IMG/VR virus record: IMGVR_UViG_3300025896_000021
Strand: one strand, 5' to 3'
From: a virus
Taxonomy: Duplodnaviria > Heunggongvirae > Uroviricota > Caudoviricetes
Length of the DNA: 64,000 bases
Shown: positions 2,957-46,867 of the stretch, piece by piece
How the letters are laid out: the number at the start of each line of letters is the position of its first letter
How positions within the stretch are numbered: position 1 is the first letter of the stretch
Made by a program: the position numbers and the translations under genes
Notes under the pieces: generated by a model
What the model was told of the DNA's origin: nothing
What the model saw: only the letters and a program-made list of their open reading frames with translations
Databases searched by the model: none

Positions 2957-5900
2957 ATGTCAAAAAGAGTTAGAACAATTGATTTTTTACCAGAAATCTT
3001 CAAGACAGATACCAACAACCAGTTTCTATCAGCTACGCTAGACCAGTTAGTGCAGCCTCCAAATTTCAGTAAAATTCAAGGCTACGTGGGTAGCAAGTTT
3101 GGTTACGGTGTTAACGCTACTGACGGATATGTTGCTGAACCAACTAAGACTAGAAAAGATTATCAATTAGAACCTGCAGTTGTCTTCAAAAAGAAAGATA
3201 CACAAGTTGCAATCGATGCTATCACTTATCCTGAATTAATTGATGCATTGCATATTGAAGGCGCCGCAACTGATAATCATCATAAATTATTCACTAATGA
3301 GTTTTACTCTTGGGACAGCTTTGCAGACTTAGATAAACTTATCAATTACAGTCAGTACTACTGGTTGCCACAGGGCCCTGAGCCAGTGAACATCAGTGAT
3401 TCTACTATGTATAAAAGTGGCGCGTTTACAATGCTATCTAACAATGTAGTATATGATATCACTAGTGACTTGTATAAGTTTGACGTAAGCAATCCTACAT
3501 TGACTCTGGTCAGAGGTGGGTCATACACTTTTATCGTAAATCAGAATTCAGAATTCTATATTCAAACTCAGCCAGGTATCACTGGATATGAAAAGCTACG
3601 AACAAACATTAGTACCCGTGAAGTCTACGGAGTAGATGTTAATGGATTAGCTAATGGTACAGTGACATTTGATGTACCATTAGCTAACGCTCAAGATGAA
3701 AACAACTATCCAGGCAACAATCCAGTTGACCTAGTTGTATCTATGGCAATTGGAGATTTGCACGGTAAGAAAGTAAGTGATATTAATAACATCGACGGTG
3801 TTACTAGTTTAGATGGAAAACGTATTGTATTCTATGGAACTCAACCTGGCGTACAATCATACCTAGGCGATTTCTATGGAGAGTTTGGTTTTGATGTTGA
3901 TGATCCTGCACGTGTAGTTCCTACTACCACTGAAGTAACACAGACTGCTGGATCAGTAACTGATTTCGATGAAGAAACATTTGACAGTGACCCGATGAAC
4001 TACACTCGTCACGTAATCACTTGTCTGTCTACTAAAGATTTTTCAGTAAATAGTGTAGTGACATTCTCGGGCATTCCATTCGGCGGCCTGACTGAAGGTA
4101 CTGTTTACTATATTGAATCTATTCTCAGTGACACTACTTTTACAGTGTCTACCTCTTTGTATGGAACAGCAGTAGAACTAACTGATGCTACTACCAACGA
4201 GAACGGTAAATTATTTTTAACAGTACATGATGGTGGATTCGAAGAAGGTAGCCTAACTACCGTCAATGACAACTTCTATACTATCAAATATATCGGTGAT
4301 GAATTAGATCCTATCATCAGCGTGTACGAAGACGGCGTTATCCCTAACGATCAAACTATTCTTATTAACTACGGTACTAAGTATGTAACACGTCATTTTG
4401 TACGTAATGCATATGGTGAAATTTTACTAGTACCGTTGATCACTGCTAACCTAGATAAATTGTATTACCAAGCTGGTGCTAATCCTGATCAGTATGGAAC
4501 TATTAAGTTGATTGACGCTACTAGTCTTTCAGGTATAGATATTAGCGAGATCATCGGTAAAAAAACATACACTAGTCCAAACGGTGTTCAATTTACTAAT
4601 GGTCTAAAAGTAAAATTCAACGGCACAGTAGTCCCAACTCAATACACAACTGATCAATACTACGTAGAAGGTGTTGGTACATCTATTGCATTGCTACCAG
4701 TGAGCGAGCAATTAGTTCCTGAACCATTCGGTCAAGGATTCTTTGCCCCATTCGATCAGGTGTCGTATGATACGGATGCATACGGTAATGCACTACTAGT
4801 TCCAGCAGACAGCGATTACCTAACTATCAATCGTAACAGCAATAGCCAAAATGCGTGGAGCCGCAGTAATCGTTGGTTCCACATTGATGCACTGAATACG
4901 GTGCTGGCTAACAATGACAACAGTCCTATGGTCAAGGCCGCATTGGCTAGTACTACTGCTAGAGCAAAGCGTCCGATCATTGAGTACTATGCTAACCTCA
5001 AGCTATTCAATTCAGGCACTAACGGCAAAGCTCCAGTTGATTACTTAAACTTCACCGTGACCGATGCACTTAACCAAGTTGCCGGCAAGACTGCATTTTT
5101 TCCGGACGGCAGTGCAAATGAATTGTTCGATGGAGCTAGAATTATATTTGCCAATGATTCTAATATTGAAGTAAGAAACAAGATTTTTGTTTGCAACTTT
5201 AGTAAAGTCTCACCTGATCAAGTGCCAACTATCACGTTGAGCAGAGCATATGACGGGGATGTGGCATATAATGACCAGACTGTTATTGTTAAAGGAGATC
5301 AGTATCAAGGTAAGAGTTATTACTTTGACGGATCTACTTGGAGCGTAGCTCAATTAAAGAAGTACGTAAACCAATATCCTAAATTCGATGTGTTCGACAA
5401 GAATGGAATTAGTTTTGGAGACATAGAGTATTATCCTGGATCAGACTTCACTGGCTCTACGTTGTTTGAATATCAACCTAGTTCGGGAGTTAATGATCCT
5501 ATATTAAACTTCCCAATCAAATATAGCTCTATCACTAACATCGGTGACATAAGTTTTGATGTTAGCTTGAATTCACAGACATTCAACTATGTGTATAATA
5601 GTCAATCTATTACTACTCCCATCAACACTGGGTATGTACATACGTATTCGACCAACACACTATATGACCGACACATTGGTTGGCAAACTGCGGTAGAACC
5701 TACCTTTCAATATCAAGTATTCAACCTAACTTATTTAGGTAGCGATATTGTATGTGACATTCCTGTAAAGGCTGTAGCCGACACTGAATGGCCTGTTATT
5801 ACAGTGTATGTAGATAATCAACGAACTACTGATTATACCTATACAACTTCTGATTCTACTACGACAGTAACCTTAAACACTCCGCCTACAGTAGGAACTC

Positions 5901-8900
5901 CCATTGAGGTTCTATTGTTCAGTGATAGTGTGAGTAAAATTGCATACTATCAAATTCCGTCCAACTTTGATCACAACCCATTCAATGAACAAGTGACTAC
6001 TGTTAACTTGGGTGACCTTCGCGGCCACTACAAGAGCATATGTAATAATATCAAAACACTAATTGGTAGTGCATTTGGTCCTAATAACTTTAGAGACTTG
6101 GGTAATATTGTTCCATACGGTACACGTATTGTACAGAGCAGTGCATCATTGGTCGCACCGGCTATATTCTTGAAATCATCAAACAATAATATTTTTAATG
6201 CATTGTCATTCAATGCAAAAGAGTATACAAAATACAAAGCAGTATTAATAGACACGGTTGATAGATCAGATTACAATCCGTTGCAATCTAACAGTGATAT
6301 TTTAGATGATGCGCTAGATCAGATATCGGGAACTAAGTCTGATGCCAGCTCATTCTTCTGGAGTGACATGCTACCTTCGAAGGGTGCATCTACTACTAAG
6401 ACTTATAATTTTAAGAGTGGTGTAGATTCATCAGTGTACCCACTGACGATGATTTATGACTACACTACTGCTAACTATAATGGCGTGTTAGTATATCTAA
6501 CTAGAAAAATTGACGGTGTATCTAGAAACATCCAACTGGTTAAAGATATCGATTATACTGTTAGTGCGGTCGCAAAAAGTCTATCCATCAGTAAATATCT
6601 GATTCCAAATGATTCTATCACTGTTAAAGAATATGCACAGACATATGGTAGCTATGTTCCTAATACTCCTACTAAGATAGGTTTGTATCCTGCATATATG
6701 CCTGAGGTATTTCAGGATGCAAGTTTCATTACACCTACGTATTTCATTCGAGGTCACGATGGCTCTTACACTAAATTGTATGGTGATTATAATGGTGGTT
6801 TCTTAGAAGACTTTCGAGACAGAGCGTTGTTAGAATTTGAAACTCGTATATACAACAACTTAAAAGTTGTTGCTAAGATTCCATTGCAATATGATGATAT
6901 CTTCCCTGGACAATTTAGAACTACTGATTACACCTTCGATGAATTGAATGCAGTTTATTCTTCTCAATTCTTGAATTGGGTTGGTACAAATCGTGTGGAC
7001 TACAAGAGTCAGTATTATGATGCTACTAATGAGTTTACTTGGAACTATAGTAAGTCTATCAGTAAGCTAACTAATACTAAACTCCAACAAGGTAATTGGA
7101 GAGGTGTATTCTACTGGTTGTATGATACATCACATCCGGATACTCGCCCATGGGAAATCTTAGGAATAAACAATAAGCCGTCATGGTGGGATGCTAGATA
7201 CGGTGCTGCACCATACACTAGTGATAACATATTACTATGGACTGATATTAGTAACGGTTCTATTTGGAATAACGGTGACAGCTATATCAATGCTAAACGG
7301 GTACGTCCTGGATTATTAGACGTGTTGCCAGTAGATTCTAACGGTAAGCTAGTAAGTCCATTCACTAATGTAGTTAATTCATATGATGTTAACACCTTCA
7401 ATAATGAATGGACTATCGGGGATATGAGTCCAACAGAATACAGTTATCGCAAGAGTAGTATGTGGCCATTCGACTTGATGAGAATGTACGCATTAACCAA
7501 GCCAGCGCAATTCTTCTCGTTGGGCATTGACCTAGACATCTATCAATACAACTATGAATTTAATCAATATCTAGTTAATGACAGATTGCGTCAACCACCT
7601 TCAGACTTGTTAGTTTACGGTGCTAGTGCAGATACAGCCGCACATAGTTATTTGAATTGGATTGTTGATTATTTGAATCAATTTGGTATTGATGGTAGTC
7701 AGCAAGTAACTGATTACTTCAATAACACTGATGTTAGATTAACTTATAGAATGGCAGGATTCAGTGATAAAGACCTATTGAAATTCTTTGCAGAAAAAGG
7801 TTCACCTAATAGCAAGAACAATAGCTTATTGATTCCTGACGAGAGTTACAATATCATCTTGTATGAGAACCAACCATACAGTACTATTGTATATAGTTCT
7901 ATCATCATTCAAAAGACTAAGTTCGGATTCAGAGTATATGGTAACAGCCAAGACAAGGCATATTTTGTAATTAGCGATGCAAATCTTAACGGAATATATT
8001 CTACAGTAACAATTAATGATTATTCAATTAGTGTACCTACAAAATTTAGAGATACTACTACATACATTTCATACGGTACTGAATTTGCCACAGTAGAATC
8101 ACTTGCTCAATTTGTGAGCAGCTATGGTAATTACTTAGTAACACAGGGTGTTAAGTTTAACAACATCGAGAATGCATTAGAGTTAAACTGGAATCAAATG
8201 ATTGCAGAACTACTTTACTGGTCTTTGTCTGGATGGGAAGATGGTAGTATCGTTAACTTAAACCCTAACGCTAATAGTATCACCATCACAACTGATATTG
8301 GTATCGTTCAACCATTGACATTGTATCAAGAAAATTACATTCTGAATCAGAATCTAATACCAATCCCATTGAATGATCTAGGTATTACCAGACTAGATAC
8401 TACGTTTACTGCTACTGCATTGAATCAAGGCGACTCATTGAGTTTCATGCGATGCAAAGTTAGCGGTGTCGAGCACATTGTAGTGTTTGATAATACTACG
8501 GTATTCAATGACACTATGTTTAACTTAGTTACTGGCCTACGCCAGCAACGTATCTACGTTAAAGGTACAAAGACCGCAGAGTGGACTGGTCAAATGAACG
8601 CTGCTGGATTTATTATCAATCAAGATAATATACAAGAGTGGGTATCTAACCAGAAGTATAACAAAGGTTCAATTGTAAAATACAAGAATGAATACTGGAT
8701 TGCAAACAGAGTTACTGTAGTACCTGTTAGTAAATTTAACACTGATGAGTGGAATAAAACTTCATATGATAGTATTCAAAAAGGATTATTACCTAACCCA
8801 AGTACTAGAGCATATGAATCTACGTTATATTATAATACTAATGCAGCCAATCTAAAAAATGAAGCGGACTTGTTAAGTTTCTCATTGATCGGATATCGCC

Positions 8901-11900
8901 CACGTAATTATCTAGCTGAAGCTAACTTAGATGATACTACTCAGGTAAATATTTACAAGAATATGATTTCTAGTAAAGGTACTCGTAATGCATTTGATGC
9001 ATTAATCGGGGCAAACCTACAACAATCTAGTTTGACATATGACTTTTATGAAAACTGGGCTATCAAGACTAGTAACTACGGTGGAGTATTGAACAAGAAC
9101 TTTATCGAATTCACTTTGGACGAAAGTCAGTTGCTAGGTAATCCAGCAACGGTTGGCATTGTACACGGTGAAACTGTCGATAATGTTCAGCAGTTAGTCC
9201 AACTGTATGATTTGAAAAACTATGGATATACTATAAACAATACTAATATATTGCCTACTATATCTTCAACCACTGATAGTAAGTTACCGTCTGCTGGTTA
9301 TGTTAATCTTGACGATGTATTGTATACTGGATACTATGTTGATAATCTAGATAATGCTTCTATCAGTAACTTATATAAAAATGACTACGTATGGATTGCT
9401 GACAAGATAGGTGAATGGAAAGTATATACTCCTATCCCAACAGTAGCACGATTGACGAACGTTGTAAACAACTTAAACAATACCGCTACGTTTACCTTCA
9501 CTTATCACCATGACTTAGCGGTTAATGATATAATTGGTATTATTGATTATGACTATCGTGTCAATGGATACTACACTGTAGTCTCTGTTAACAGTTTAAC
9601 TTCTATTGTGGTCAGTTTAACTTTGGATTCTGGTGTAACTTCTATTAACAGTAATAAAAGTAACATCATGTTCAAGTTCTATAACCAACGTGTAACCAGC
9701 GCCAAAGATATTTCTACTCTAGAACTTCTAAACGCAGACTATGTGAAAAACAAAGTATGGGTTGATAAAAACCAAAACGGTGAATGGAGTGTATTACGCA
9801 AGACCAATAACTATGAGTATACTAACTTCATTAAGCCGGGCAATACTATTGAGTTTGGTAGTGCAGTAGCTTACACTGAAAAATTAGGTTACTTTGTTTC
9901 CGATCCAGCGAATAGCAAAGTGCATCGTTTCGTAGAAACGTCATCCGGTAATAGTCAGTACGCATTGGTGGATACTATTACTCATGGTCAAGGCTATGGA
10001 ACTGCGATGGTCAAAAATGATGATATAATGATTATATCACAACCTGATCCGTTTGGCGACTTGAGCATTCTATATGTTTATAGAATGGTGAAGACTGACA
10101 GAATCACGTCATTAGTAGAGGAACAAATTCTAGCAGTGGCTGGATTTAGACTAGGAGATAGTTTAGCACTTTCCGGTGACGGAGAGTTATTCTATGCTAG
10201 TGTCATCGACCTTAATGCTATTATTGAATTCCAGCGCAGTGCTGATTACTCATACTATAATATAGGTGCAGTATTAAAATCAGCAGTGACACCCGGCTCA
10301 ACATCATTTGAATTGTATGGTAACATCCCTAACTTGGTACCCGGACGTTATATCACGTTTACTAATTTTGGATATGATGACAAATATACAGTAGTAACTT
10401 CAAAGTACAATTCGTCAACTGATTCTACTACTGTGTATTTGAGTGAAGCAGTGTTGTACAGCGTGAGCACTGGCTCAGCGGTATACAGAGCGAGTGTTAG
10501 TTATTTCATCTTGGGTGCAATTTCTAGTGAAGGATTAGCTAACGGCAGTGATCTATTCAGTTCTAGTCTAGCTACTAACTATGACGGTAGCAAACTGTTC
10601 GTAGGCTCTCCTCAATCTGACTTTAGCCAACAGTTACTAGATTCCGGTTATGCATTCGTATACGACAGACTGATTGAAAATTGGGAAGTCATTACTGATA
10701 GTCCGGGTAATAGCTTTACGTTATTCTTCTTGCCTTGGCAACCTACCCCTACATCGGTCGTCTATATCAATGATGTAAAGCTACACCCATCATACTATGT
10801 ATTGATTTCGAATCTATTAGTGATAGGTCCTATCTTACGTGCAGGCGATGTAGTTACTGTTAGTAGTGGTAACATGGTATTAGTACAAGAATTAGCAAGC
10901 TACGACTTGATTGAAGAAATTGATCCAGGTGCTAAGTTCGCATGGTCATTAGATTGCAATACCTCTGGTAGTGAACTATTGATTGGTAGTCCGTTCAACT
11001 TGAATCAAGAAGAAAAAGAAGGAGCAGTGTTCAGATACTCTAACGAAGGTAAACACTTTGGTAGAATTACTGGTATATTACAATGTCACCTATTAGAACC
11101 AGCTAGCATTTTGATTAACGGTTATCGCGTTGCGTTACCTGATCCTACTATGTCTGCCCCTGGTGATGCGTTCTACGTAGCAAACAAAATTAATCAAGCA
11201 GTTATTACCAACGTTTTTGCATATGCAACTGAAGACAATCGCTTAGTAATTCGCCTACGTGATGTAGACTTGAATCCAATCAACAACAAACTGAACTTGA
11301 CTGTATTCAACGGTAATATCATGGCAGAGCTTGGTATTGCTATGTACTTGAAGACTCAAGTTATATACGATCCTCATGCAGAGACCCGAACTCAGTTTGG
11401 CTACAAGGTTAAATTCAATGAACAGAATAGTTTCATCGTAAGTGCCCCTGCTGCACCTCGTTATATGGGTACTCAGTTCGACTTCAGTAATGATGAGAAC
11501 AACCACAACGATACTGTATTTGATAATAACTTTACGCAGTGGGAAGACAAGTACGGAGACGCTGGTACAGTGTATATGTATGACTACATTCCTTCATACA
11601 ACGAAAGTTTGGTAACTGCTAGTAACTATGTATATTCGCAAACACTCCCTGATCAGGAGCTTGCATATGGTCGTCAACCATATTACGGTCAATCATTAGA
11701 CTTTATTAAAAACAAAGTAATGATCGGTACACCAAACTTTAAGAATGGTTCTATAAACGGTCGAGTGACTGTATATGAAAATAATGTCGGTGCAGCTAAC
11801 TGGGCAGTGTATAGAGAGTCTGCGCTTGTAACTGATATCACTAAGATTCAGAAAGTTCAAATCTACAATAACATCACTGATGTAACAGTGGAATCGCTTG

Positions 11901-14900
11901 ATTACTTTGATCCTCAACAGGGTAAATTGTTAGGACCTATACGTGAAAATATAGACTTCATTACTTCTGTTGATCCAGCTGGATATAACAATACGAATGC
12001 TAAAGGCAACATGGCATGGGGCAAGAATCAAATCGGTAAGATTTGGTTTGACGTAACCACAACTAAGTTTATCAACTATCATCAAAATGATGTAGTGTAT
12101 AACAGCAAGTACTGGGGTAATGTATTCCCGGGAAGTACTGTAACAGTATATAGTTGGATTGAAAGCGATGTAATGCCAGCGTTCTATATTGGTACAGGCC
12201 AACCATATAACTTTGGTAATTATAGTTTAGGATTCGAAACTGATGCAAGTGGAAACCTATCAACTCGTTATTACTACTGGGTACGCAATACTGACACGTT
12301 ATTTGGCTTACAAGGTAAGACATTAACCGATACAGTCATTGCTCAGTATATCGCTAATCCACAAAGTTCTGGTATTGCATATTTTGCAGCACTGTCTCCT
12401 AGCGTATATTCATTGTATAACGTGCGTGATTTTATCTACAGCAAAAATACTAACTTGCATATTGGTTTCAGTACCAACGACATTGATATTCCTAATCACA
12501 GTGAGTATCAATTAATTCGCAATGGTTATGCTAATGATTTCTTACGTGGAGTACCAGATAATATTAACTATGTAGAGCCTGCAGGATTGTACAACAAGTT
12601 CTTGAATAGCTTTGCGGGTGTAGATGAGATAGGTCAAGTATTACCTAATCCTAATCTACCTAAACTATTACAAATTGGTATTGGTACTCGTCCTAATCAA
12701 TCGTTGTTTATTAACCGATTCAGTGCGTTAGAGAATTATCTACAGTATGCAAATACTGTAATGAAAACTTATCCAATCAATGAACTGAGCACTATAACTT
12801 TCTTGAACACTTACGGTGATTCATTCGACACACGCAAATATTGGCAAAATATTTATTGGTGGGCTGATGGATATAGCAGTACAACTAAAACTGCATTTGA
12901 AGTTGCAACTTACTATGACTTACTAAAGGTTACTGCGAAAGAAGAACTAATAGTTGGTGTTAGTATGAACAGCCAAGGTAACCGTGAAGTGTACAAGTAT
13001 ATAACTAGTTCATGGGTTCGTATTGGTTTAGAAGATGGTACTATTGAATTCTTGCAAACTCTATGGGATTACGAGAACAATAGAATCGGATTCGGCGATG
13101 TATTCTTTGACACAGTTTCATTCGATGCATATCCTTCAATTGAAACCAAGTATATTGTTCGTGCGCTTAATGAGCAGATTTACGTTGGACCATTGACCAT
13201 CTATAAGAACAAGAGTTTGATATTGATGTTCGAATATATTCAAAGTGAAAACGTAGAATCACAGAATTACTTACCATGGTTGAACAAAACTAGCTTGGCA
13301 GATGTTAGCTATAACATTCGTAGCTTGCTACCGTACCAAAAGTATCAAAGTGATAACACTAATTTACTTGAAGGTTACTTAAATGAAGTTAAACCATATC
13401 ACGTAGTCCTTAAAGAATTCAGTTTCAAATACGATGGTATAGATACATTCGACGGTAACATTACTGACTTTGACTTACCTTCAAAATATAATTCTACACT
13501 AAAACGATTTGTATCACCGCAGTTGTCATATAGTTCATCATTATCCGGTGGAGAGTATAATAGTGCAGACGCAATTTGGTCTAGTGATGCTGAATATCAA
13601 TCTTGGATCAGTAACTATGGTCTAAAATTAATTGCTAAGAAAAATCAAGTCGTAGCGAGATTAGTAAAGTACGTTAATACTATTAGCCAATCACTATATG
13701 TAGATAATGCTAGAGGATTGCCTGCTGCAGGTATCATCACGATTGGTGGAGAATTGATTGCCTATTCTAAAGTAGATAGAAACCGTGGTAAGTTGTCTGG
13801 ATTAAGTCGCGGAATGAGTAACACTAAGGTTACTACTCATCTTCCTGATACTAGTGTTTATGCTGATTTACCGAGCGTTATCGTACTGGATACCGGACGT
13901 GGATATATTGACCCACCGATAGTTAAAGCATACATCGATACATCGAAGTATCCTGCACCAACACGTGAAGCAGTATTGAAAGCTGCAATGAGCGGCGATA
14001 AAGTAATTGAAGTCGAAGTAATTGATCCAGGAGAAGGTTATGCTGTTGCTCCGGAAATTATATTCCAAAGTGCATTTGAGACTGTGTTCAATGAGAGTGA
14101 TATTAACTTCCAATCAAACTTATTGGTTCTAGATCCTACTGACATTGTAACTGGTGATTTGATTAAGATCATTGCCGGTGGTAATTCTGATGAAGCTATT
14201 ATTTCTGGTTACTACTACGTTACCGTACTAGGATTTAACAGTGGTTCTAGTGGGGTTAATGACAAACCGGTAGTATCGTTGCATTACAATTACAGAGACA
14301 GTACGGTCGGAGAACATAAAGTGGTGTTCAAGAAGATCACTACTGCATTGTCATATACGTTGCAGATGGTACCTAGAGCGATTGCAGTTACAACTAGTCC
14401 GTTGATCCGATCTATCAATACTACTATGAGGTTAGATAGAACGAGCTATCAAACCATGATTGAAGAATGGAAATCAGGTACATACTGGCCTAGTCCATTC
14501 AACAGTTTAGGTAATGATGCTAGTACTGATACATCGTTGAGCTACGGCATACCGTTTACGTTCGAATACAATGACGGTAAGAACTTTCAAAACAGTGCTT
14601 ATGGTGCTGGAGTGAAGTTTACTGTGTATAATCAAACAATGTTAGAAATGTATGCAGTGACTATCGAAGCGTCGGGCGCCGGATATACAGTGGGTGATAC
14701 TATCACGGTAGAAGGTTACTATTTAGATGGAGTTACCGGTACAAACGATTGTACTATTACAGTAACCTCTATCATTGGTTCATATGCAACTGGCCCTATT
14801 AAAACAGTAACAGTATTGGGAACTCCGTACTCTCAAAGCGGCGCAGGCGCTCAAGGTGCATTGCTTCCAATCATGGCTACGGAAACAGTAGAAGACGCAG

Positions 14901-17900
14901 TAGTGGTTACTCTGAACTATAAACCAAGTACATTGAAACCAGGCCAGATCAAGGGTTTGAGAATGTATTTCTATCGTCATTTTGAACCATATGTATATGA
15001 TGATACTGGTACATCATTTACTGGATCTATTTCTGGTACTACATTGACCGTGACTGCTATAGTAGGGTCTAGTACGACATTAAGTATAGGTGATCATGTA
15101 TATGGTAGAGGAGTATACTTTAAAGGTGCCGGGACAACTATCACCGGCTTTGTGACCGGAACCGGTCGCTTAGGTACATACACTGTTACTCCTAGTCAAA
15201 CTGTCGCCTCAACTGATATGAATACAGGCGGCGGTGCGGTGATTGAAGTGTATCGTCCTAGATTCAATCCAGTGTCAATCACTAATCAATACTTTATTAA
15301 GATTCTAAACTATGGTTGGAAGTATATTGATGATGATCAAATATTGTTATCTGGTGCATTACTAGGTGGAACCGCCGGAACGAATGACGCTAGCATTAAC
15401 ATTCGATATGCCGGAGATTTTGGACAGATTCAAATTGCGTCTATCACCGGTGTATCTAATGGTGGATTCAAACAATACTATGTCATGCCAGTGAGTGCAA
15501 CGCAGATCAAATTGTTTGTTGATACTAAGTTGACTATTCCTGTATTGTCTGCGGATTATACTTTCACTAATACAGTGACTGACTTTGCATTCATACCGGA
15601 ACCATTGTCATCAGGCGGCGGATATAAGTACACCGTAACTGCTATTGTCTCTTATGACAATAGAGTATGGCGTTGCTTGATTAGTAACAGTGATGATTAT
15701 TTTGACTTTGCTAAGTGGGAAGTAATTCCTAGTGATAGCAGATTACTAAACGCACTAGATAGAACTATGGGTTACTATAAACCTACAGTAGATATGCCGG
15801 CCAAAGATGTACGTCAATTGTTTACTGGTACTACATTCCCTAATGCAGTTTACTATGGTAACAGCTTTGCTCCCGGAGATGAATTACCTCTAGATGTTGT
15901 ATTGAAGGATCAAATCTTCTATCCTAGAGACACTGATATTAAAGCAATTATATTTGATGGTACTTCATACGTAGCTGTAGGAGAAACTGCCACTCACTCT
16001 GTTGCATTAATCAGTGATGACGGAACTAACTGGCGCGTCATTAAATTATCAGATCAAAACTTGGGAGTTACTGACATTGTATACTCTGGAATTTACTATG
16101 TAATTTCAACTACGACAATTGCGACACCGGTATTATTAAGTGATGATAAAGTTAATTGGTCAACATTAGGTTCAAACGTAGCATATGACTTTACGCCGTA
16201 TGGTTATACTGGATTCGACTCACTCGCATTAACCGTGCCTAGTGAAGAAATGTATTCATTGACATATGCGAACGATAAGTTTTTTGCTATTGGTAAAGAC
16301 ATTGTTTCAAGTGACGACGGTATTACTTGGAACATAGTGTTCAGTTTTGGTAGCGAATTAGACAACCAAATTAAAAACTTGCGCTATGTAAATTCTACCA
16401 ACTTTGTTGGTTATATTGCTGTAGGTGGTGGCTATCAAGTCGTAGAAGGCGCCGGCACATCTTCTCCGGTGGTAGAATATAGAGCAAGAATCATCACTGA
16501 AGTCGATTCAGTTTGGAATACTTTCAATCCATCATTCACTGGTAATCAAATGAACACTGTTATCGCATCTAGTGATATCATTGTAGTCGCTGGCGCAAAC
16601 GGAGAAATTTGGAATAGCATTAATACTCGTAACTGGATCATGTCAAGTGTCTCCGGTGGAACAGTAACCGCTACATTACGTGACAGTTCATACGGTAACA
16701 ATATATTTGTTATCGTCGGTGATGCTGGAACAATTCTAAAATCAGTTGATGGCATTTCATGGGGAGTAATTGCAAGCCCGATCTCATTCGACTTGACGGG
16801 TATTACTTTTGATGGTACGTACTTCTATGCGGTTGGTAATAACGGTGTTATTATTCGTAGTACGAACGGAAGTGCTTGGCAAGATATTTCCTTCATCACA
16901 ACTGATAAAGCATTATATGATATCAAGGGTAGCGAGTACTTGTCAGGGTATGGTCCTGAAGAACTAGTGCCAGGCATCATCAGTGACACGTTATCAATGA
17001 AGGTTACGACTCGTCCTGGATCATATTGGGATAACGATACGTTCACTCAATCATTCTTGTATGGAAATACTGGATTCAATATTGTTTCTGAAATAGTTAC
17101 ACCAACTGGAACTACTGCTAGCTTTGATAATTTAGTAGAAAATCCTGCACAACTTTCAGTGTTCATTGTGGACAGTATTACTAAGTTAGGTAATCGTATC
17201 TATGAAAATTACGGGTATGCTCTTAACTGGATCACTAAGACGATTACATTGTCTACTGCTCTAGTTGCTGGTAAGTCATTATTAGTTGAAGTATACGAAG
17301 TTGGTAATGGTCGTCAGTTAGTAAGAAGCAATTCTCAACTAATGCCGGTGACCATTGATACTACTACCGGGCACTCACAAATAATATTGAATGAAAAAGC
17401 ACAGAACTTAAGTGCTTCAATCATATATCGCAACGGAACAAAATTGGTAAACAACACTGATTATCAAATTGTTACGGTAGCTAACTACATGAAAGTTCTG
17501 TTTAGTACTACATATGACTTATCAGTAGACTATCTATCATTTGCAATTTTAGGTACTGCATTGTCTGAATACAACGCAAATGAATATAGTTATAGCATTC
17601 CAGAGACACAGGTGTTTGTATATACTAGCAGTAATGTGTTCACCTTAACTAATTCGTTAGGTGGCAATAACAATGTTAATGCTATTGTAGAATTGAATGG
17701 TCTACGTCTATTGAGTTCTCAGTATTCTATTAATACTTCTGCCAAGACGTTGACTGTTACTGCGGCATTGGTTGCAACTAATATAGTTGCAACTAATATA
17801 GTTGCTATCACTACGTTTAATGATACACAGCGCCAGTACTTAACTACTGATTCATCAACTAATATGGAGGTAACTGCAATCAATACAATTGACACTACTC

Positions 17901-18811
17901 AAGCAGGCGCGGTTCTAGTACTGACTACTAATCTTGGGTTAGTTGATGCAGATACCGTGCAAGTTAATGGTATTATTGGGGCTGATCAACTGAACGGTCG
18001 TGCATATTATGTACAAGTTGGATCCCCTTATGTGATAGACGCAATTACATACTACCAATATGTTCTGTTCAATGATGCTGCATTAACTGATCCTATCTTG
18101 AGTAATAACGTCAACATGTACATCAGCGGTGGATTTGTTTGTAAGACAAGCTCATTGATTGCGCTAACTCCAACTATCATTACTATTGCACTGGATAACT
18201 CAAGTTACACATTTACACCAACAGATTCTAATAGAATTTGGGTGACTGTTAATGGAAAAAGACTTGACTCACATCAAGTTAGTATCGTAGATGATAATGG
18301 TACATCACGTCTAAACGTGCTAGCACCAGTAGCTACTGGGGATATAGTTATTGCAACTTCTATGGTTTCCGGCGGTACTCCAAACGCAACAGCTTACGGT
18401 ATAACCATCAGCAAGCAAGGTTTTGGAACTATCAGCAACATGAGTGTTAAAAATAGAACTTGGTTAACTGAAGCACTGTATATGTCACAAGATATAATAC
18501 ATTTCAATGATGTATCAAAAATAGTAGATTCTACTACCAAGATGCTGAACTTACACGGTGAGCGAATCAGATTTACTACTGTGGATTATGTAGCAAATAC
18601 GGTGTCAGGATTGACACGCGGGGTAGAAGGTACTGGTATTATATCTGTCCACTTGGCCTACAGCTATGTATATGGAATATCTGCTGCGAAGACGCTAGAT
18701 TCTTCATATTTCTTCAAGAGTTGGAATACTAAGAACTATACTAGCAGAGGTGATCCTATCCAGTTGAGTAATTCGTATCCTGTAGAATTCTTAGAATTAG
18801 GTATAAATTAA
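2957..18811 (+). CDS. Giant (5284 aa) virion structural protein, baseplate/tail associated, with beta-propeller-type repeats
   Basis: Uninterrupted 15.8-kb ORF after the wedge gene; T/S/N/Y/V-rich; FG-GAP-like repeats (FGSAVA, LGDSLALSGDG, FAWSLDC, FGYKVKF) and Asp-box/BNR motifs (SDDGTNW, SDDGITW, SVDGISW, STNGSAW). Confidence 0.7.
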   Translation: MSKRVRTIDFLPEIFKTDTNNQFLSATLDQLVQPPNFSKIQGYVGSKFGYGVNATDGYVAEPTKTRKDYQLEPAVVFKKKDTQVAIDAITYPELIDALHIEGAATDNHHKLFTNEFYSWDSFADLDKLINYSQYYWLPQGPEPVNISDSTMYKSGAFTMLSNNVVYDITSDLYKFDVSNPTLTLVRGGSYTFIVNQNSEFYIQTQPGITGYEKLRTNISTREVYGVDVNGLANGTVTFDVPLANAQDENNYPGNNPVDLVVSMAIGDLHGKKVSDINNIDGVTSLDGKRIVFYGTQPGVQSYLGDFYGEFGFDVDDPARVVPTTTEVTQTAGSVTDFDEETFDSDPMNYTRHVITCLSTKDFSVNSVVTFSGIPFGGLTEGTVYYIESILSDTTFTVSTSLYGTAVELTDATTNENGKLFLTVHDGGFEEGSLTTVNDNFYTIKYIGDELDPIISVYEDGVIPNDQTILINYGTKYVTRHFVRNAYGEILLVPLITANLDKLYYQAGANPDQYGTIKLIDATSLSGIDISEIIGKKTYTSPNGVQFTNGLKVKFNGTVVPTQYTTDQYYVEGVGTSIALLPVSEQLVPEPFGQGFFAPFDQVSYDTDAYGNALLVPADSDYLTINRNSNSQNAWSRSNRWFHIDALNTVLANNDNSPMVKAALASTTARAKRPIIEYYANLKLFNSGTNGKAPVDYLNFTVTDALNQVAGKTAFFPDGSANELFDGARIIFANDSNIEVRNKIFVCNFSKVSPDQVPTITLSRAYDGDVAYNDQTVIVKGDQYQGKSYYFDGSTWSVAQLKKYVNQYPKFDVFDKNGISFGDIEYYPGSDFTGSTLFEYQPSSGVNDPILNFPIKYSSITNIGDISFDVSLNSQTFNYVYNSQSITTPINTGYVHTYSTNTLYDRHIGWQTAVEPTFQYQVFNLTYLGSDIVCDIPVKAVADTEWPVITVYVDNQRTTDYTYTTSDSTTTVTLNTPPTVGTPIEVLLFSDSVSKIAYYQIPSNFDHNPFNEQVTTVNLGDLRGHYKSICNNIKTLIGSAFGPNNFRDLGNIVPYGTRIVQSSASLVAPAIFLKSSNNNIFNALSFNAKEYTKYKAVLIDTVDRSDYNPLQSNSDILDDALDQISGTKSDASSFFWSDMLPSKGASTTKTYNFKSGVDSSVYPLTMIYDYTTANYNGVLVYLTRKIDGVSRNIQLVKDIDYTVSAVAKSLSISKYLIPNDSITVKEYAQTYGSYVPNTPTKIGLYPAYMPEVFQDASFITPTYFIRGHDGSYTKLYGDYNGGFLEDFRDRALLEFETRIYNNLKVVAKIPLQYDDIFPGQFRTTDYTFDELNAVYSSQFLNWVGTNRVDYKSQYYDATNEFTWNYSKSISKLTNTKLQQGNWRGVFYWLYDTSHPDTRPWEILGINNKPSWWDARYGAAPYTSDNILLWTDISNGSIWNNGDSYINAKRVRPGLLDVLPVDSNGKLVSPFTNVVNSYDVNTFNNEWTIGDMSPTEYSYRKSSMWPFDLMRMYALTKPAQFFSLGIDLDIYQYNYEFNQYLVNDRLRQPPSDLLVYGASADTAAHSYLNWIVDYLNQFGIDGSQQVTDYFNNTDVRLTYRMAGFSDKDLLKFFAEKGSPNSKNNSLLIPDESYNIILYENQPYSTIVYSSIIIQKTKFGFRVYGNSQDKAYFVISDANLNGIYSTVTINDYSISVPTKFRDTTTYISYGTEFATVESLAQFVSSYGNYLVTQGVKFNNIENALELNWNQMIAELLYWSLSGWEDGSIVNLNPNANSITITTDIGIVQPLTLYQENYILNQNLIPIPLNDLGITRLDTTFTATALNQGDSLSFMRCKVSGVEHIVVFDNTTVFNDTMFNLVTGLRQQRIYVKGTKTAEWTGQMNAAGFIINQDNIQEWVSNQKYNKGSIVKYKNEYWIANRVTVVPVSKFNTDEWNKTSYDSIQKGLLPNPSTRAYESTLYYNTNAANLKNEADLLSFSLIGYRPRNYLAEANLDDTTQVNIYKNMISSKGTRNAFDALIGANLQQSSLTYDFYENWAIKTSNYGGVLNKNFIEFTLDESQLLGNPATVGIVHGETVDNVQQLVQLYDLKNYGYTINNTNILPTISSTTDSKLPSAGYVNLDDVLYTGYYVDNLDNASISNLYKNDYVWIADKIGEWKVYTPIPTVARLTNVVNNLNNTATFTFTYHHDLAVNDIIGIIDYDYRVNGYYTVVSVNSLTSIVVSLTLDSGVTSINSNKSNIMFKFYNQRVTSAKDISTLELLNADYVKNKVWVDKNQNGEWSVLRKTNNYEYTNFIKPGNTIEFGSAVAYTEKLGYFVSDPANSKVHRFVETSSGNSQYALVDTITHGQGYGTAMVKNDDIMIISQPDPFGDLSILYVYRMVKTDRITSLVEEQILAVAGFRLGDSLALSGDGELFYASVIDLNAIIEFQRSADYSYYNIGAVLKSAVTPGSTSFELYGNIPNLVPGRYITFTNFGYDDKYTVVTSKYNSSTDSTTVYLSEAVLYSVSTGSAVYRASVSYFILGAISSEGLANGSDLFSSSLATNYDGSKLFVGSPQSDFSQQLLDSGYAFVYDRLIENWEVITDSPGNSFTLFFLPWQPTPTSVVYINDVKLHPSYYVLISNLLVIGPILRAGDVVTVSSGNMVLVQELASYDLIEEIDPGAKFAWSLDCNTSGSELLIGSPFNLNQEEKEGAVFRYSNEGKHFGRITGILQCHLLEPASILINGYRVALPDPTMSAPGDAFYVANKINQAVITNVFAYATEDNRLVIRLRDVDLNPINNKLNLTVFNGNIMAELGIAMYLKTQVIYDPHAETRTQFGYKVKFNEQNSFIVSAPAAPRYMGTQFDFSNDENNHNDTVFDNNFTQWEDKYGDAGTVYMYDYIPSYNESLVTASNYVYSQTLPDQELAYGRQPYYGQSLDFIKNKVMIGTPNFKNGSINGRVTVYENNVGAANWAVYRESALVTDITKIQKVQIYNNITDVTVESLDYFDPQQGKLLGPIRENIDFITSVDPAGYNNTNAKGNMAWGKNQIGKIWFDVTTTKFINYHQNDVVYNSKYWGNVFPGSTVTVYSWIESDVMPAFYIGTGQPYNFGNYSLGFETDASGNLSTRYYYWVRNTDTLFGLQGKTLTDTVIAQYIANPQSSGIAYFAALSPSVYSLYNVRDFIYSKNTNLHIGFSTNDIDIPNHSEYQLIRNGYANDFLRGVPDNINYVEPAGLYNKFLNSFAGVDEIGQVLPNPNLPKLLQIGIGTRPNQSLFINRFSALENYLQYANTVMKTYPINELSTITFLNTYGDSFDTRKYWQNIYWWADGYSSTTKTAFEVATYYDLLKVTAKEELIVGVSMNSQGNREVYKYITSSWVRIGLEDGTIEFLQTLWDYENNRIGFGDVFFDTVSFDAYPSIETKYIVRALNEQIYVGPLTIYKNKSLILMFEYIQSENVESQNYLPWLNKTSLADVSYNIRSLLPYQKYQSDNTNLLEGYLNEVKPYHVVLKEFSFKYDGIDTFDGNITDFDLPSKYNSTLKRFVSPQLSYSSSLSGGEYNSADAIWSSDAEYQSWISNYGLKLIAKKNQVVARLVKYVNTISQSLYVDNARGLPAAGIITIGGELIAYSKVDRNRGKLSGLSRGMSNTKVTTHLPDTSVYADLPSVIVLDTGRGYIDPPIVKAYIDTSKYPAPTREAVLKAAMSGDKVIEVEVIDPGEGYAVAPEIIFQSAFETVFNESDINFQSNLLVLDPTDIVTGDLIKIIAGGNSDEAIISGYYYVTVLGFNSGSSGVNDKPVVSLHYNYRDSTVGEHKVVFKKITTALSYTLQMVPRAIAVTTSPLIRSINTTMRLDRTSYQTMIEEWKSGTYWPSPFNSLGNDASTDTSLSYGIPFTFEYNDGKNFQNSAYGAGVKFTVYNQTMLEMYAVTIEASGAGYTVGDTITVEGYYLDGVTGTNDCTITVTSIIGSYATGPIKTVTVLGTPYSQSGAGAQGALLPIMATETVEDAVVVTLNYKPSTLKPGQIKGLRMYFYRHFEPYVYDDTGTSFTGSISGTTLTVTAIVGSSTTLSIGDHVYGRGVYFKGAGTTITGFVTGTGRLGTYTVTPSQTVASTDMNTGGGAVIEVYRPRFNPVSITNQYFIKILNYGWKYIDDDQILLSGALLGGTAGTNDASINIRYAGDFGQIQIASITGVSNGGFKQYYVMPVSATQIKLFVDTKLTIPVLSADYTFTNTVTDFAFIPEPLSSGGGYKYTVTAIVSYDNRVWRCLISNSDDYFDFAKWEVIPSDSRLLNALDRTMGYYKPTVDMPAKDVRQLFTGTTFPNAVYYGNSFAPGDELPLDVVLKDQIFYPRDTDIKAIIFDGTSYVAVGETATHSVALISDDGTNWRVIKLSDQNLGVTDIVYSGIYYVISTTTIATPVLLSDDKVNWSTLGSNVAYDFTPYGYTGFDSLALTVPSEEMYSLTYANDKFFAIGKDIVSSDDGITWNIVFSFGSELDNQIKNLRYVNSTNFVGYIAVGGGYQVVEGAGTSSPVVEYRARIITEVDSVWNTFNPSFTGNQMNTVIASSDIIVVAGANGEIWNSINTRNWIMSSVSGGTVTATLRDSSYGNNIFVIVGDAGTILKSVDGISWGVIASPISFDLTGITFDGTYFYAVGNNGVIIRSTNGSAWQDISFITTDKALYDIKGSEYLSGYGPEELVPGIISDTLSMKVTTRPGSYWDNDTFTQSFLYGNTGFNIVSEIVTPTGTTASFDNLVENPAQLSVFIVDSITKLGNRIYENYGYALNWITKTITLSTALVAGKSLLVEVYEVGNGRQLVRSNSQLMPVTIDTTTGHSQIILNEKAQNLSASIIYRNGTKLVNNTDYQIVTVANYMKVLFSTTYDLSVDYLSFAILGTALSEYNANEYSYSIPETQVFVYTSSNVFTLTNSLGGNNNVNAIVELNGLRLLSSQYSINTSAKTLTVTAALVATNIVATNIVAITTFNDTQRQYLTTDSSTNMEVTAINTIDTTQAGAVLVLTTNLGLVDADTVQVNGIIGADQLNGRAYYVQVGSPYVIDAITYYQYVLFNDAALTDPILSNNVNMYISGGFVCKTSSLIALTPTIITIALDNSSYTFTPTDSNRIWVTVNGKRLDSHQVSIVDDNGTSRLNVLAPVATGDIVIATSMVSGGTPNATAYGITISKQGFGTISNMSVKNRTWLTEALYMSQDIIHFNDVSKIVDSTTKMLNLHGERIRFTTVDYVANTVSGLTRGVEGTGIISVHLAYSYVYGISAAKTLDSSYFFKSWNTKNYTSRGDPIQLSNSYPVEFLELGIN
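17771..17805 (+). repeat. 15-nt in-frame tandem duplication (VATNI x2)
   Basis: GTTGCAACTAATATA x2 followed by GTTGC. Confidence 0.9.
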
Positions 18812-41412: not shown

Positions 41413-42000
41413 ATGACAGAAGAAATTAAAGACGTTAATGCTAAGATTGACGATATGGAAGCAGCAGCAAAAAAATATGCCAGTAAGGATACAGTCATTA
41501 GTATTGGAGGATATGAATTTACTCCTGCTAAACTAATGGTTGCGTTCACACTAGTATCATCCTTGTTGGGTGGACTGTATGGTGCATTTGAAGTTTACAA
41601 AGACTATCAAGGTATGAAGAAGAAGATATCTGAATACTCGGCACCAGACTTATCAGGATTTGATAAGCGTCTAGCAGTGATTGAAGAAACATCTGGTAAG
41701 ACTGCTGATTACACTCGTGATATTAAGAATGATCTTAAGACTGATATCCGTCGTAACGAAACAGTTACTGAACAAGTTGAACGCAGTGTTAAAACAGCCC
41801 AACGTGAATCAGAAGGTGAGATGCGTGATATGCGTAAGGGTGTTAGAGAAGACCTAGACAAAGCTCGTGCAGAAGCAGCAGCAGTGCGTACTGAAATGGC
41901 ACAGGCACGTAGAGAGATTGGCAAGGAAGTGGAACAATTGAAGAAAGAGATTGACCAAAAGATACAGAAAGCTATTGACAATCCTTTAGCAAACAAGTAA
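41413..42000 (+). CDS. Single-pass membrane coiled-coil protein
   Basis: TM segment LMVAFTLVSSLLGGLYGAF followed by a long charged helical region. Confidence 0.7.
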   Translation: MTEEIKDVNAKIDDMEAAAKKYASKDTVISIGGYEFTPAKLMVAFTLVSSLLGGLYGAFEVYKDYQGMKKKISEYSAPDLSGFDKRLAVIEETSGKTADYTRDIKNDLKTDIRRNETVTEQVERSVKTAQRESEGEMRDMRKGVREDLDKARAEAAAVRTEMAQARREIGKEVEQLKKEIDQKIQKAIDNPLANK

Positions 42001-42005
42001 ACTAT

Positions 42006-42013
42006 ACTAAATA
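42006..42013 (+). promoter_or_regulatory. Late-like promoter motif ACTAAATA for the tmRNA precursor
   Basis: TAAATA core 3 nt before the predicted 5' end of the acceptor piece. Confidence 0.55.
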
Positions 42014-42016
42014 AGA

Positions 42017-42463
42017 GTTATTGTTGTATGAAGTAGATTGAAAAGGATTCAAGACGCGGGTTCGAATCCCGCCAGGTCCACCATAAGGAAGTTTATGAAA
42101 AGCATATATCATGGCACAGCAGGTGCCAACGCAAAACTTAAAGGTAAAAAATTTAAACTTTTGTCATGTGGTTGTTGTGTATTGTTCAACCTAAAATGGG
42201 AAGAACGTATGAAAGAAGCAAAGAAAGAAATAAAATCTTTATGATGGGCCTGCTCCGGTAATCGATTGGGTCAAGAGTAGAGAAATGGACAACTCGGCAA
42301 TGTAGAAGCCGTAGGATTAGGGTAACTTTAGTCGCTATGCCCATAGCATAGAAAGACGGAGCCTGGTCGTAGACACAAAAAACCATAAATGCAAACGATT
42401 CAGTTTACGCATTGGCTGCTTAAATGACGCCTAGGGTAGTTATACCTCGTAACAGAAAATAAC
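42017..42463 (+). ncRNA. ssrA: Circularly permuted (two-piece) tmRNA; acceptor piece ~42017-42083, coding piece 42246-~42463, tag ANDSVYALAA
   Basis: T-arm GCGGG-TTCGAAT-CCCGC (42056-42072); acceptor 3' strand CAGGTCC-A-CCA (42073-42083) pairs with downstream GGGCCTG (42246-42252), giving the G3.U70 Ala determinant; TTGGGTC (42266-72) pairs with GATTCAA (42046-52); tag frame GCAAACGATTCAGTTTACGCATTGGCTGCTTAA (42391-42423). Confidence 0.92.
42095..42244 (+). CDS. 49-aa basic CGCC-containing protein encoded inside the tmRNA intervening segment
   Basis: AAGGA SD immediately after the CCA end; ATG 42095; TGA ends with one intervening base before G1 of the coding piece; MKSIYHGTAGANAKLKGKKFKLLSCGCCVLFNLKWEERMKEAKKEIKSL. 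Confidence 0.65.
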   Translation: MKSIYHGTAGANAKLKGKKFKLLSCGCCVLFNLKWEERMKEAKKEIKSL

Positions 42464-42466
42464 AAA

Positions 42467-42488
42467 GAAAGGCTCTTCGGAGCCTTTC
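42467..42488 (+). terminator. Terminator-like hairpin after tmRNA
   Basis: GAAAGGCTC-TTCG-GAGCCTTTC. Confidence 0.75.
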
Positions 42489-42492
42489 CCCA

Positions 42493-42500
42493 TATAAATA
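42493..42500 (+). promoter_or_regulatory. T4 late consensus TATAAATA
   Basis: Exact match; 5 nt before ATG 42506. Confidence 0.7.
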
Positions 42501-42505
42501 CAGAT

Positions 42506-43174
42506 ATGATATACTTCAAAGAAACAGATTTAAAGTTTGCAGACGACATACAAGCAGAAGTCTTGGACATCTGTCACAATCGTCCTGAAGAATTAGTCAT
42601 GCGCAATCCAGAGTGGCGCCGAATACTCAATGACACTCCCTACCGTGAAATAGAATCTTACATTGGCGTTAAAGCCGCACGTGAGATTAAGTTTCGACGC
42701 ATTGCTATGCTTAAGAAATTTAATGCACTAACGCAAATTAGTTTCTTACAGTACAGTTTACCGGATCGATTGAATGAGGCATTTAAAGATGCATGTCCTT
42801 CGTTCCTACCTAAGGATGAACTGATTCCGATTGTACAAATAAGTACAGGTGGAAGCATGTTGTATCCACATAAAGGTCATTTTAGAAAAGCAAGTTTATT
42901 CTGCTTGCTTGAAGGTGGAGATGAGATTACTAAATGGTGGAAAGAAACTACCCCGTTTGATCTAATTCCTGAGTATAGAATCCCGGATATAACCAAGTGC
43001 GAAGAAGCTGTTTCTACCGTGCTTAAAAAGAATGTGTGGACTTTGTTCAATCACTATGAATGGCATTCGGTGCATTCTTATAAAGAGAACATTGAGTTTC
43101 GTGTCAACTTGGGTGTTGATTTTAAAACACTATCTGCGGATCAAGTTTACGAGAAAATACAAAATCATGTTTAA
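42506..43174 (+). CDS. Putative cupin/2OG-Fe(II) oxygenase-like protein
   Basis: LYPHKGH and distal WHSVH...RVNL pattern; metal motif is non-canonical. Confidence 0.4.
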   Translation: MIYFKETDLKFADDIQAEVLDICHNRPEELVMRNPEWRRILNDTPYREIESYIGVKAAREIKFRRIAMLKKFNALTQISFLQYSLPDRLNEAFKDACPSFLPKDELIPIVQISTGGSMLYPHKGHFRKASLFCLLEGGDEITKWWKETTPFDLIPEYRIPDITKCEEAVSTVLKKNVWTLFNHYEWHSVHSYKENIEFRVNLGVDFKTLSADQVYEKIQNHV

Positions 43175-46033: not shown

Positions 46034-46867
46034 ATGATGTACTCAAACAAGCTCGTGGCGAGCCTAAAAGCCAATGGTAAAATTCTCCGCGAATTTAAAG
46101 ACACCGTCTATATCCCATTCGGGAGCGAATATAGCTTCTTGCTAAAAAATCTTCACACATCCAGAGCAGTAGTTAACATCTTTATCGATGGTGACAATAT
46201 TGTTGAGGGTGGACTTGTCCTTGATCCAGGACGTGAAGTAGACTTAGAGCGTTACATTAAGAACGGCAATCTTACAGAAGGCAATCGTTTCAAGTTCATC
46301 GAACGTACTGCTGTAATTGAAGATGGTCCGCGTGGCGTCAAGTTGGAAGATGGACTGATTCGTATTGAGTTTCAATTTGAAAAGCCATATGTTCCGCCTC
46401 AGTGGAATAACAAGAGTTCTTGGATTAGTGCATCCGGATCAACTACACTTGCCAGCTACAATGTCAACGGTGCAATGCGCGGTGTGGACTTTAGTAAGAA
46501 TGGTGCAATTATGGCACAGGCTGCAAGTGCCTCAGTAGACAAGTATTGTGCCGATAACGGTATCATGAATACTAGCGAAGTACATGATGGTGCAGCTACT
46601 ATGGATTGGATGCCTGCTAACGATGTTGGCATCACTGTGCCAGGTAGCAAGAGTACGCAAAAGTTCCAGAGTGTTACAATGGGCACAATGGAGATTGAAA
46701 AGCACAGCATGGTTATCAAGTTGTTGGGCGAAACTCCTGACAACAAGCCTGTGCTAAAGCCAGTCACAGTTGAGCGCAAGCCTGAATGCGTAACTTGTGG
46801 TAAGAAGAATAAAGTACATTCTAAATTCTGCACAGAATGCGGAACTGCACTAGAAATCTTTGCATAA
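46034..46867 (+). CDS. Hypothetical protein with C-terminal zinc ribbon
   Basis: CVTCG...FCTECG. Confidence 0.7.
   Translation: MMYSNKLVASLKANGKILREFKDTVYIPFGSEYSFLLKNLHTSRAVVNIFIDGDNIVEGGLVLDPGREVDLERYIKNGNLTEGNRFKFIERTAVIEDGPRGVKLEDGLIRIEFQFEKPYVPPQWNNKSSWISASGSTTLASYNVNGAMRGVDFSKNGAIMAQAASASVDKYCADNGIMNTSEVHDGAATMDWMPANDVGITVPGSKSTQKFQSVTMGTMEIEKHSMVIKLLGETPDNKPVLKPVTVERKPECVTCGKKNKVHSKFCTECGTALEIFA

Follow-up and report, generated by a model that had tools for sequence, protein, structure and literature searches.

We found that a permuted tmRNA gene of an uncultured jumbo phage carries a 49-codon open reading frame (ORF) in the spacer between its two pieces. The tmRNA is intact. We consider it very likely that the spacer is an exchangeable cargo slot, that it holds a captured, real gene, and that this arrangement is general in the phage lineage. 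The window that we analyzed is a 64-kb stretch of a viral record.

Permuted tmRNA gene of the window

The full permuted tmRNA lies at 42022-42492 (+) and is intact by ARAGORN, Rfam, and direct reading. ARAGORN reported it at 41991-42514 as the one RNA gene in the 64-kb window, with the tag ANDSVYALAA. The Rfam model RF04321 matched at 42022-42423 over its full length (positions 1-213), scoring 89.7 bits where the cut-off is 47. For the betaproteobacterial model RF01850, the match at 41971-42492 scored 89.8 bits, with a cut-off of 84. The acceptor piece, with the T-arm, the 3' acceptor strand, and CCA, is upstream of the coding piece, which has G1, the G3.U70 pair, and the tag frame. A sequence-only reading had proposed this tmRNA with a 162-nt intervening segment (IVS), a Shine-Dalgarno (SD) sequence, and a 49-codon ORF, and all of them are present at the positions it had proposed. 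The features are as follows.

41975..42003, + strand: sigma-70-like promoter candidate (TTGACA, 17 nt, TAAACT; 10 of 12 consensus matches), directly upstream of the tmRNA
42022..42083, + strand: tmRNA acceptor piece (Rfam alignments, ARAGORN, and comparison of relatives)
42082..42089, + strand: 5' arm of the terminal helix, the CA of CCA and the first six IVS bases including the SD (fold and covariation)
42084..42245, + strand: IVS of 162 nt, bounded by CCA (42083) and G1 (42246)
42085..42089, + strand: SD sequence AAGGA, 5 nt before the ATG, within the conserved 5' slot end
42095..42244, + strand: 49-codon gene P0001 (translation: a small basic protein with an invariant C-x-CC), stop codon TGA at 42242-42244
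42236..42243, + strand: 3' arm of the terminal helix, covering the Ser-Leu codons that end the ORF and the first two stop bases (fold and covariation)
42246..42492, + strand: tmRNA coding piece (RF01850 and RF04321 alignments)
42391..42423, + strand: tag reading frame, with the GCA resume codon first, ten codons, then TAA (ARAGORN and direct reading)

The acceptor piece consists of the 3' strand of the long helix, the T-arm, the 3' acceptor strand, the discriminator A, and an encoded CCA (42081-42083). The coding piece consists of G1, the 5' acceptor strand with G3.U70, a pseudoknot region with an extra hairpin, and the tag frame, and its 3' terminal hairpin is at 42462-42493. The tag begins with an alanine resume codon and has a hydrophobic, LAA-type end. 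The first pseudoknot region (42298-42365) is about 65 nt long, compared with the 6 to 7 nt expected by the Rfam models, and it contains a small extra hairpin of about 35 nt, which is missing from close relatives. Two related phage tmRNAs (L018, 1000-1537, and L035, 188-822) encode unusually long tags of 27 to 28 residues. A group I intron with a homing endonuclease was considered and rejected: the window matches only the two tmRNA families of Rfam, and the T-loop is uninterrupted.

The candidate at 41975..42003 was the sole promoter that a consensus scan found upstream of the nested ORF. Homology among the window and two relatives, L011 and L003, starts at about 42017, directly downstream of it. 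Because this sole candidate is the tmRNA's own promoter, the cargo would have no separate transcript start.

The window comes from a viral record of 92 kb with a CheckV completeness of 26%. An identical copy of the 49-aa peptide is also encoded on a 359-kb contig; therefore, the source is a jumbo phage, and it is an uncultured one. Searches of a GenBank phage collection with the tmRNA region (blastn) and with two family members (tblastn) gave no match, and the sole match of a large neighboring protein in that collection was to a Ralstonia jumbo phage, at 28% identity. The window also contains a single open frame of 5284 codons at 2957-18811 (+). No smpB had been seen in the window, and this result extends to the whole 92-kb record: the SmpB family PF01668 matched neither that record nor five related records, two of which are 97 to 100% complete.

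Conserved ends of the intervening segment

The IVS reads, from 5' to 3', T, AAGGA, five bases, the ATG (42095), 49 codons, TGA, and a single final T. The TGA ends at 42244, and the last IVS base is 42245. AAGGA is the usual SD among this phage's own genes; an SD-like motif precedes 12 of 35 window genes, versus 6.5% at random positions. In both the minimum-free-energy and the centroid folds, 42082-42089 pairs with 42236-42243 (8 pairs), and this helix is stacked on the acceptor stem. Thus, the IVS ends pair and extend the acceptor stem, as had been predicted from the sequence. The SD and the stop codon are buried in the helix, and covariation across the lineage agrees with the folds. The stability of the overall fold of the region is not unusual (z = -1.35).

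The covariation was measured on the 123 IVSs listed, coding and non-coding together. On average, 11.07 of the first 12 positions, counted from the CA of CCA, pair with the 3' end of the same IVS. When the 3' ends were swapped among these IVSs, 8.38 of 12 positions paired, with a maximum of 8.68 in 200 trials. Several compensatory pair types occur at helix positions 3 and 7 to 12. Two bases, AT, lie between the helix and G1 in 117 of the 123.

In the cargo-bearing IVSs, the 5' arm of the helix holds the SD, and the 3' arm often holds the last two codons and TGA. The SD leader after CCA is common to unrelated cargo ORFs, and the same 3' end closes many of them; most of the cargo ORFs among the matches listed are in frame with the built-in TGA. 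Because the last codons are built into the slot, Ser-Leu, Phe-Leu, or Leu-Leu endings recur in proteins that are otherwise unrelated.

The spacer as an exchangeable cargo slot

We scanned viral contigs in two ways. The first scan used a 15-base pattern made of the acceptor end and the first six IVS bases. It gave many chance hits, and at least 53 were kept after a tmRNA T-arm was required upstream. The second scan used only the T-arm and the acceptor end and was unbiased toward IVS type. An IVS was scored as filled if a single ATG-initiated ORF of at least 20 codons ended within 12 nt of G1.

Among the matches listed, with the scans pooled, 48 of 125 distinct IVSs were filled by an ORF, and 43 of these 48 ORFs had an SD-like motif. 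Shuffled versions of the same IVSs gave a mean of 2.3 and a maximum of 8 filled in 200 trials. In the first 80 loci of the unbiased scan, one ORF filled the IVS in 21 of 71 resolvable genes (30%, a sample value, as both scans cover one T-arm sequence class). The remaining 70% or so of the related tmRNAs in that sample have no ORF filling the IVS.

The cargo is diverse. It comprises at least 29 unrelated sequence families of 22 to 122 aa, the largest of which, among the matches listed, consists of hydrophobic peptides of 22 to 27 aa. Pfam matches above the cut-off, again among the matches listed, were to thioredoxin (PF00085, 75.4 bits) and to a DUF2061 membrane protein (72.6 bits). A 24-codon cargo peptide showed 12 synonymous differences versus 1 non-synonymous difference, and the DUF2061 cargo had a pN/pS of 0.21. 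RF04321 gave full-length matches spanning the ORF in all 14 cargo loci tested.

The nested layout of the window recurs in the phage contigs L011, L018, L019, and L020, the last three of which were found through three further 49-aa homologues, so that five independent contigs have it. Each of the five nested IVSs measures exactly 162 nt, has the same ends, and keeps the frame intact. Comparisons among relatives show how loosely backbone and cargo are associated. The tmRNA backbone of L020 is 97 to 98% identical to that of L002, which has a non-coding IVS of 66 nt. Its cargo is 97% identical to that of L011, whereas the L020 and L011 backbones are only 62 to 77% identical. The acceptor piece of L011 is, in turn, identical to that of L003, which also has a non-coding IVS of 66 nt. 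A 338-kb genome that is 97% complete (G002) has a 273-nt IVS with the same two ends and a different, 83-codon ORF, and its own member of the 49-aa family is encoded 180 kb away from that tmRNA. The mismatch between backbone and cargo identities indicates that the cargo-bearing IVS moved between backbones or that backbones were exchanged around it. Since near-identical backbones occur with and without cargo, and unrelated genes fill the slot in different phages, we conclude that the cargo is exchanged by recombination.

Some SD-led IVS ORFs have no in-frame stop codon before G1 and continue into the coding piece. Such run-on frames occur at L156, L174, L182, and L185, at L071/L146, at L040, and at L100; one example is a cysteine-rich frame of about 30 codons that is conserved in four loci. 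Once RNase P has cut, a message of this kind would have no stop codon.

In prokaryotes, with one genome taken per species, the same T-arm class occurs in standard one-piece tmRNAs and in permuted tmRNAs of Acidobacteriaceae with IVSs of 28 to 38 nt. The only ORF-bearing IVS in that set was on one short MAG contig that is probably from a phage. Because the cellular IVSs are otherwise short, the layout is a phage trait in this sample. Eight Acidobacteriaceae MAG loci (L253, L264, L267, L272, L274, L277, L285, and L309) have the T-arm and acceptor sequence found in the phages, which may offer a clue to which hosts the phages infect or to where their gene came from.

Proposed mechanism

A real gene lies inside the excised segment, and one precursor must serve as both the tmRNA precursor and a message, a dual role that had been suggested from the sequence. 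We propose that the conserved 5' slot end, directly after CCA, provides the ribosome-binding site and that the conserved 3' slot end often provides the last two codons and TGA. Transcription of the cargo would start at the tmRNA promoter and yield it solely within the tmRNA precursor. Its translation would most likely take place on the growing transcript, before the 3' arm exists. The helix would then close over the start region and offer the precursor to RNase P and 3' trimming. As in established tRNA and tmRNA processing, RNase P would cut before G1 and the 3' side would be trimmed to CCA, releasing the IVS. Judging from known ribosome footprints, a strand of the acceptor stem would be covered by any ribosome that initiates at 42095 or terminates at 42242. 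Conversely, closure of the helix would mask the SD and the ATG and so hinder initiation. Translation and the processing fold would therefore be mutually exclusive in any one molecule. Gating of translation by tmRNA maturation, or competition between them, as proposed in the sequence-only reading, is a reasonable expectation.

After cleavage, the cargo message would keep one base beyond the stop codon. The slot might thus be a coupling device, although we regard this as unlikely. The stop codon is inside the helix and one base from the IVS end, so RNase P cleavage together with 3' trimming would give a non-stop message. The excised message would then yield a product that is tagged by the released tmRNA, and ribosomes on the cargo would delay tmRNA maturation. 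If this were true, cargo output would fall as tmRNA activity rises, a logic like that of ArfA. The run-on IVS frames would fit such coupling, as would a family copy in L034 that has its stop codon inside the next tRNA gene (see below).

It is quite unlikely, in our view, that the cargo ORF mainly serves the RNA, with translation acting as a timer or sensor of acceptor-stem formation so that tmRNA output follows ribosome availability. Such a role would suit the position of the start region and the stop codon inside the processing helix, the expected covering of an acceptor-stem strand by a ribosome at either end of the ORF, and the frame that most cargo ORFs share with the built-in TGA. However, the amino acids of the cargo are under purifying selection, some cargo belongs to known protein families, and about 70% of the related tmRNAs in our sample have no IVS ORF at all. 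An exchangeable slot for protein genes remains our preferred explanation.

Locations of the gene in related phages

Close relatives of P0001 are encoded at 16 viral loci, and among these only the L011 copy is nested in a tmRNA. In L003 and L012-L015, the gene begins about 14 nt past the terminal hairpin of the tmRNA. In L002, L004, L005, L008, and L009, it lies 0.1 to 1.2 kb downstream of an amber-suppressor tRNA, which itself comes after the tmRNA. The L007 gene is 2.4 kb from the tmRNA, and L006, L010, L016, and L017 have no tmRNA within 3 kb of the gene. Each of five larger related records has exactly one family member and one permuted tmRNA, separated by 0.3, 2.5, 26, 43, and 180 kb. Distant members of the family (L024, L032, L033, and L034) are inside tRNA arrays on the same strand, with their own SD, 12 to 29 nt past a tRNA 3' end. 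The L034 copy (2001-2174) starts 17 nt past a tRNA-Gln, and its stop codon is inside the next gene, a tRNA-Phe (2140-2215).

Free-standing copies are 5 to 7 codons longer at the C terminus, whereas nested copies end in Ser-Leu-stop, which is encoded by the IVS end. Therefore, the nested state is the derived one. By this comparison of sequences, the nested P0001 is a captured free-standing gene that lost its own C-terminal tail.

Other genes accompany the free-standing copies. They are always followed, within 20 to 65 nt, by a gene for a conserved protein of 155 to 186 aa (L002, 3185-3706; L003, 3233-3718; and L004, L005, L008, L010, and L012, at about 3188-3748). This protein matched no known family and is absent from the 92-kb record of the window. 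The amber-suppressor tRNA (anticodon CTA), with a perfect sigma-70-type promoter, adjoins the tmRNA in most close relatives (L002, 2792-2866; L003, 3768-3842; L004, 1779-1853; also L005, L008, L012, and others); ARAGORN found none in the 64-kb window. This tRNA may be a sign that a stop codon is reassigned or suppressed in that group of phages. The window encodes a 277-aa protein with a C-terminal zinc ribbon at 46034-46867. Its homologues, with 53 to 76% identity, adjoin the suppressor tRNA and the small gene in relatives, which points to a conserved neighborhood that was rearranged in this phage.

These locations bear on the role of the protein. The sequence-only reading had offered it as a dedicated cofactor or regulator of trans-translation, its synthesis being tied to tmRNA maturation because both act together. 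All five larger related genomes do pair one family copy with one permuted tmRNA, the gene is 15 nt to 2.5 kb from the tmRNA and on the same strand in many close relatives, and the protein is basic with conserved cysteines. However, in three of the five genomes the gene is 26, 43, or 180 kb from the tmRNA, and the distant members are found in ordinary tRNA arrays that have no tmRNA close by. The family thus lies mostly outside the IVS, be it directly downstream of the tmRNA, 0.3 to 180 kb away, or in tRNA arrays, which is largely the pattern that the sequence-only reading had named as counting against its proposal. The slot is shared with the 29 or more unrelated cargo families. The protein also resembles neither SmpB nor any known family or fold. 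We therefore consider a dedicated role in trans-translation very unlikely and do not retain that part of the proposal. Most likely, to judge from these patterns, the P0001 product is a cargo protein.

P0001 is a selected gene of a small protein family

Among about 5.8 billion proteins searched, we found 16 homologues of P0001, with 67 to 90% identity and E-values of 1e-11 to 1e-21. With a profile, 214 sequences, nearly all of 48 to 90 aa, were found at E ≤ 1e-3 among 1.84 billion cluster representatives. We compared 13 distinct coding sequences. Across 47 codons, the first, second, and third positions were variable at 24, 20, and 44 sites. The median dN/dS was 0.11 (range, 0.04 to 0.34; Nei-Gojobori), with synonymous sites near saturation. 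Within the nested clade of five copies, the variable sites by codon position were 3, 8, and 21, and the frame was intact. The window and L011 copies differ by a dN of 0.08 and a dS of about 1.3, and the nested copies are 80 to 90% identical in protein despite saturated synonymous sites. The low dN and high dS across the nested copies indicate that the nested gene was kept as a protein gene over a long divergence.

By its substitution pattern, then, P0001 is a real gene. The earlier proposal of a protein gene inside the excised segment is borne out: the homologues are under purifying selection, the nested relatives keep the ORF frame and the IVS ends, and filled segments are more frequent than in shuffled ones. 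It is extremely unlikely that the ORF is untranslated, as a frame left open by RNA-level constraints or a decaying passenger would be; the helix would hinder initiation, the fold is not unusually stable, and an IVS ORF of Coxiella is reported as probably not expressed (PMC4990558), but third codon positions vary far more than first and second ones, synonymous sites are saturated while the protein is conserved, the same protein is encoded at unrelated positions, and a good AAGGA motif precedes the ATG at 5-nt spacing.

The N-terminal half of the protein is basic and contains the family core, an invariant G-K pair and C-x-CC; a charged helix comes after it. Zinc binding, which the sequence-only reading had raised as a possibility, would call for four conserved ligands or a known zinc fold. 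Three cysteines are conserved throughout the family, and His6 is conserved only among close relatives. Profile searches of P0001 against Pfam, PHROGs, NCBIfam, and PDB sequences returned nothing credible. An AlphaFold model built from 24 sequences (pLDDT, 73.6) has a strand, a helix, two strands, and a long helix. With this model, Foldseek against the PDB and a wide VIA-align search gave no match above noise (best Z, 2.5), and an ESM Atlas search gave scores of 0.84 at most. The basic sequence, the three invariant cysteines, and the position of the gene beside tRNA-like genes suggest that the product binds nucleic acid.

Comparison with known systems

In its order, T-arm, G3.U70 pair, encoded CCA, and LAA tag end, the tmRNA of the window is like other permuted tmRNAs (RF04321 and RF01850; Caulobacter and betaproteobacterial). 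However, the IVSs described for these are short and non-coding, whereas that of the window is a protein gene. Our searches of the full-text literature found no description of protein genes in tmRNA IVSs.

Phages interleave small genes with tRNA genes in arrays, as in the T4 and T5 tRNA regions, where transcripts are punctuated by tRNAs. The tmRNA IVS is topologically the same kind of spacer, with a CCA end on one side and an RNase P site on the other. Unlike the spacers of tRNA arrays, it has both flanks in one RNA that must pair, and its conserved ends form a helix.

Two-piece tmRNAs of phages are known, for example, in the OM43 phage Melnitz (PMC9004378). The odd IVS contents given in a 2025 tmRNA database paper are only a tRNA-Ala gene and a repetitive element (PMC11915505). 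The same paper describes homing endonuclease genes in group I introns of tmRNA T-loops (PMC11915505). These are also protein genes nested in a tmRNA and removed from the mature RNA. Unlike them, the IVS needs no splicing, as the two pieces are never joined, and its cargo has no similarity to endonucleases.

The nearest published analogue is the S23p ORF in an excised IVS of 23S rRNA in Coxiella burnetii and Leptospira, for which the authors conclude that the Coxiella protein is probably not made in vivo (PMC4990558). This too is a protein-type ORF in a helix-bounded segment that is cut from a stable-RNA precursor without religation. The host RNA is a different one, however; the segment is cut by RNase III there, and tRNA-type processing is expected here. 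One conserved ORF family occupies the rRNA segment, in contrast to the hypervariable cargo of the tmRNA slot, and the tmRNA slot itself provides the ribosome-binding site and the stop codon.

Implications

Spacers of tmRNAs have been treated as disposable, but a large share of those in this lineage serve as exchangeable slots for genes. With a ribosome-binding site and a stop codon within an RNA-processing helix, the transcript doubles as stable-RNA precursor and message, which makes it a compact natural system in which to study how translation competes with tRNA-type processing. Annotation is affected as well: such nested genes will be missed or mislabeled by gene callers and tmRNA finders, and tmRNA models should allow IVSs as long as about 380 nt. 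The work also brings out a family of small, basic cysteine proteins, so far without a name, that is encoded beside tRNA-like genes in jumbo phages. For the phages, the slot is a route to co-express small, often membrane-active proteins with tmRNA.
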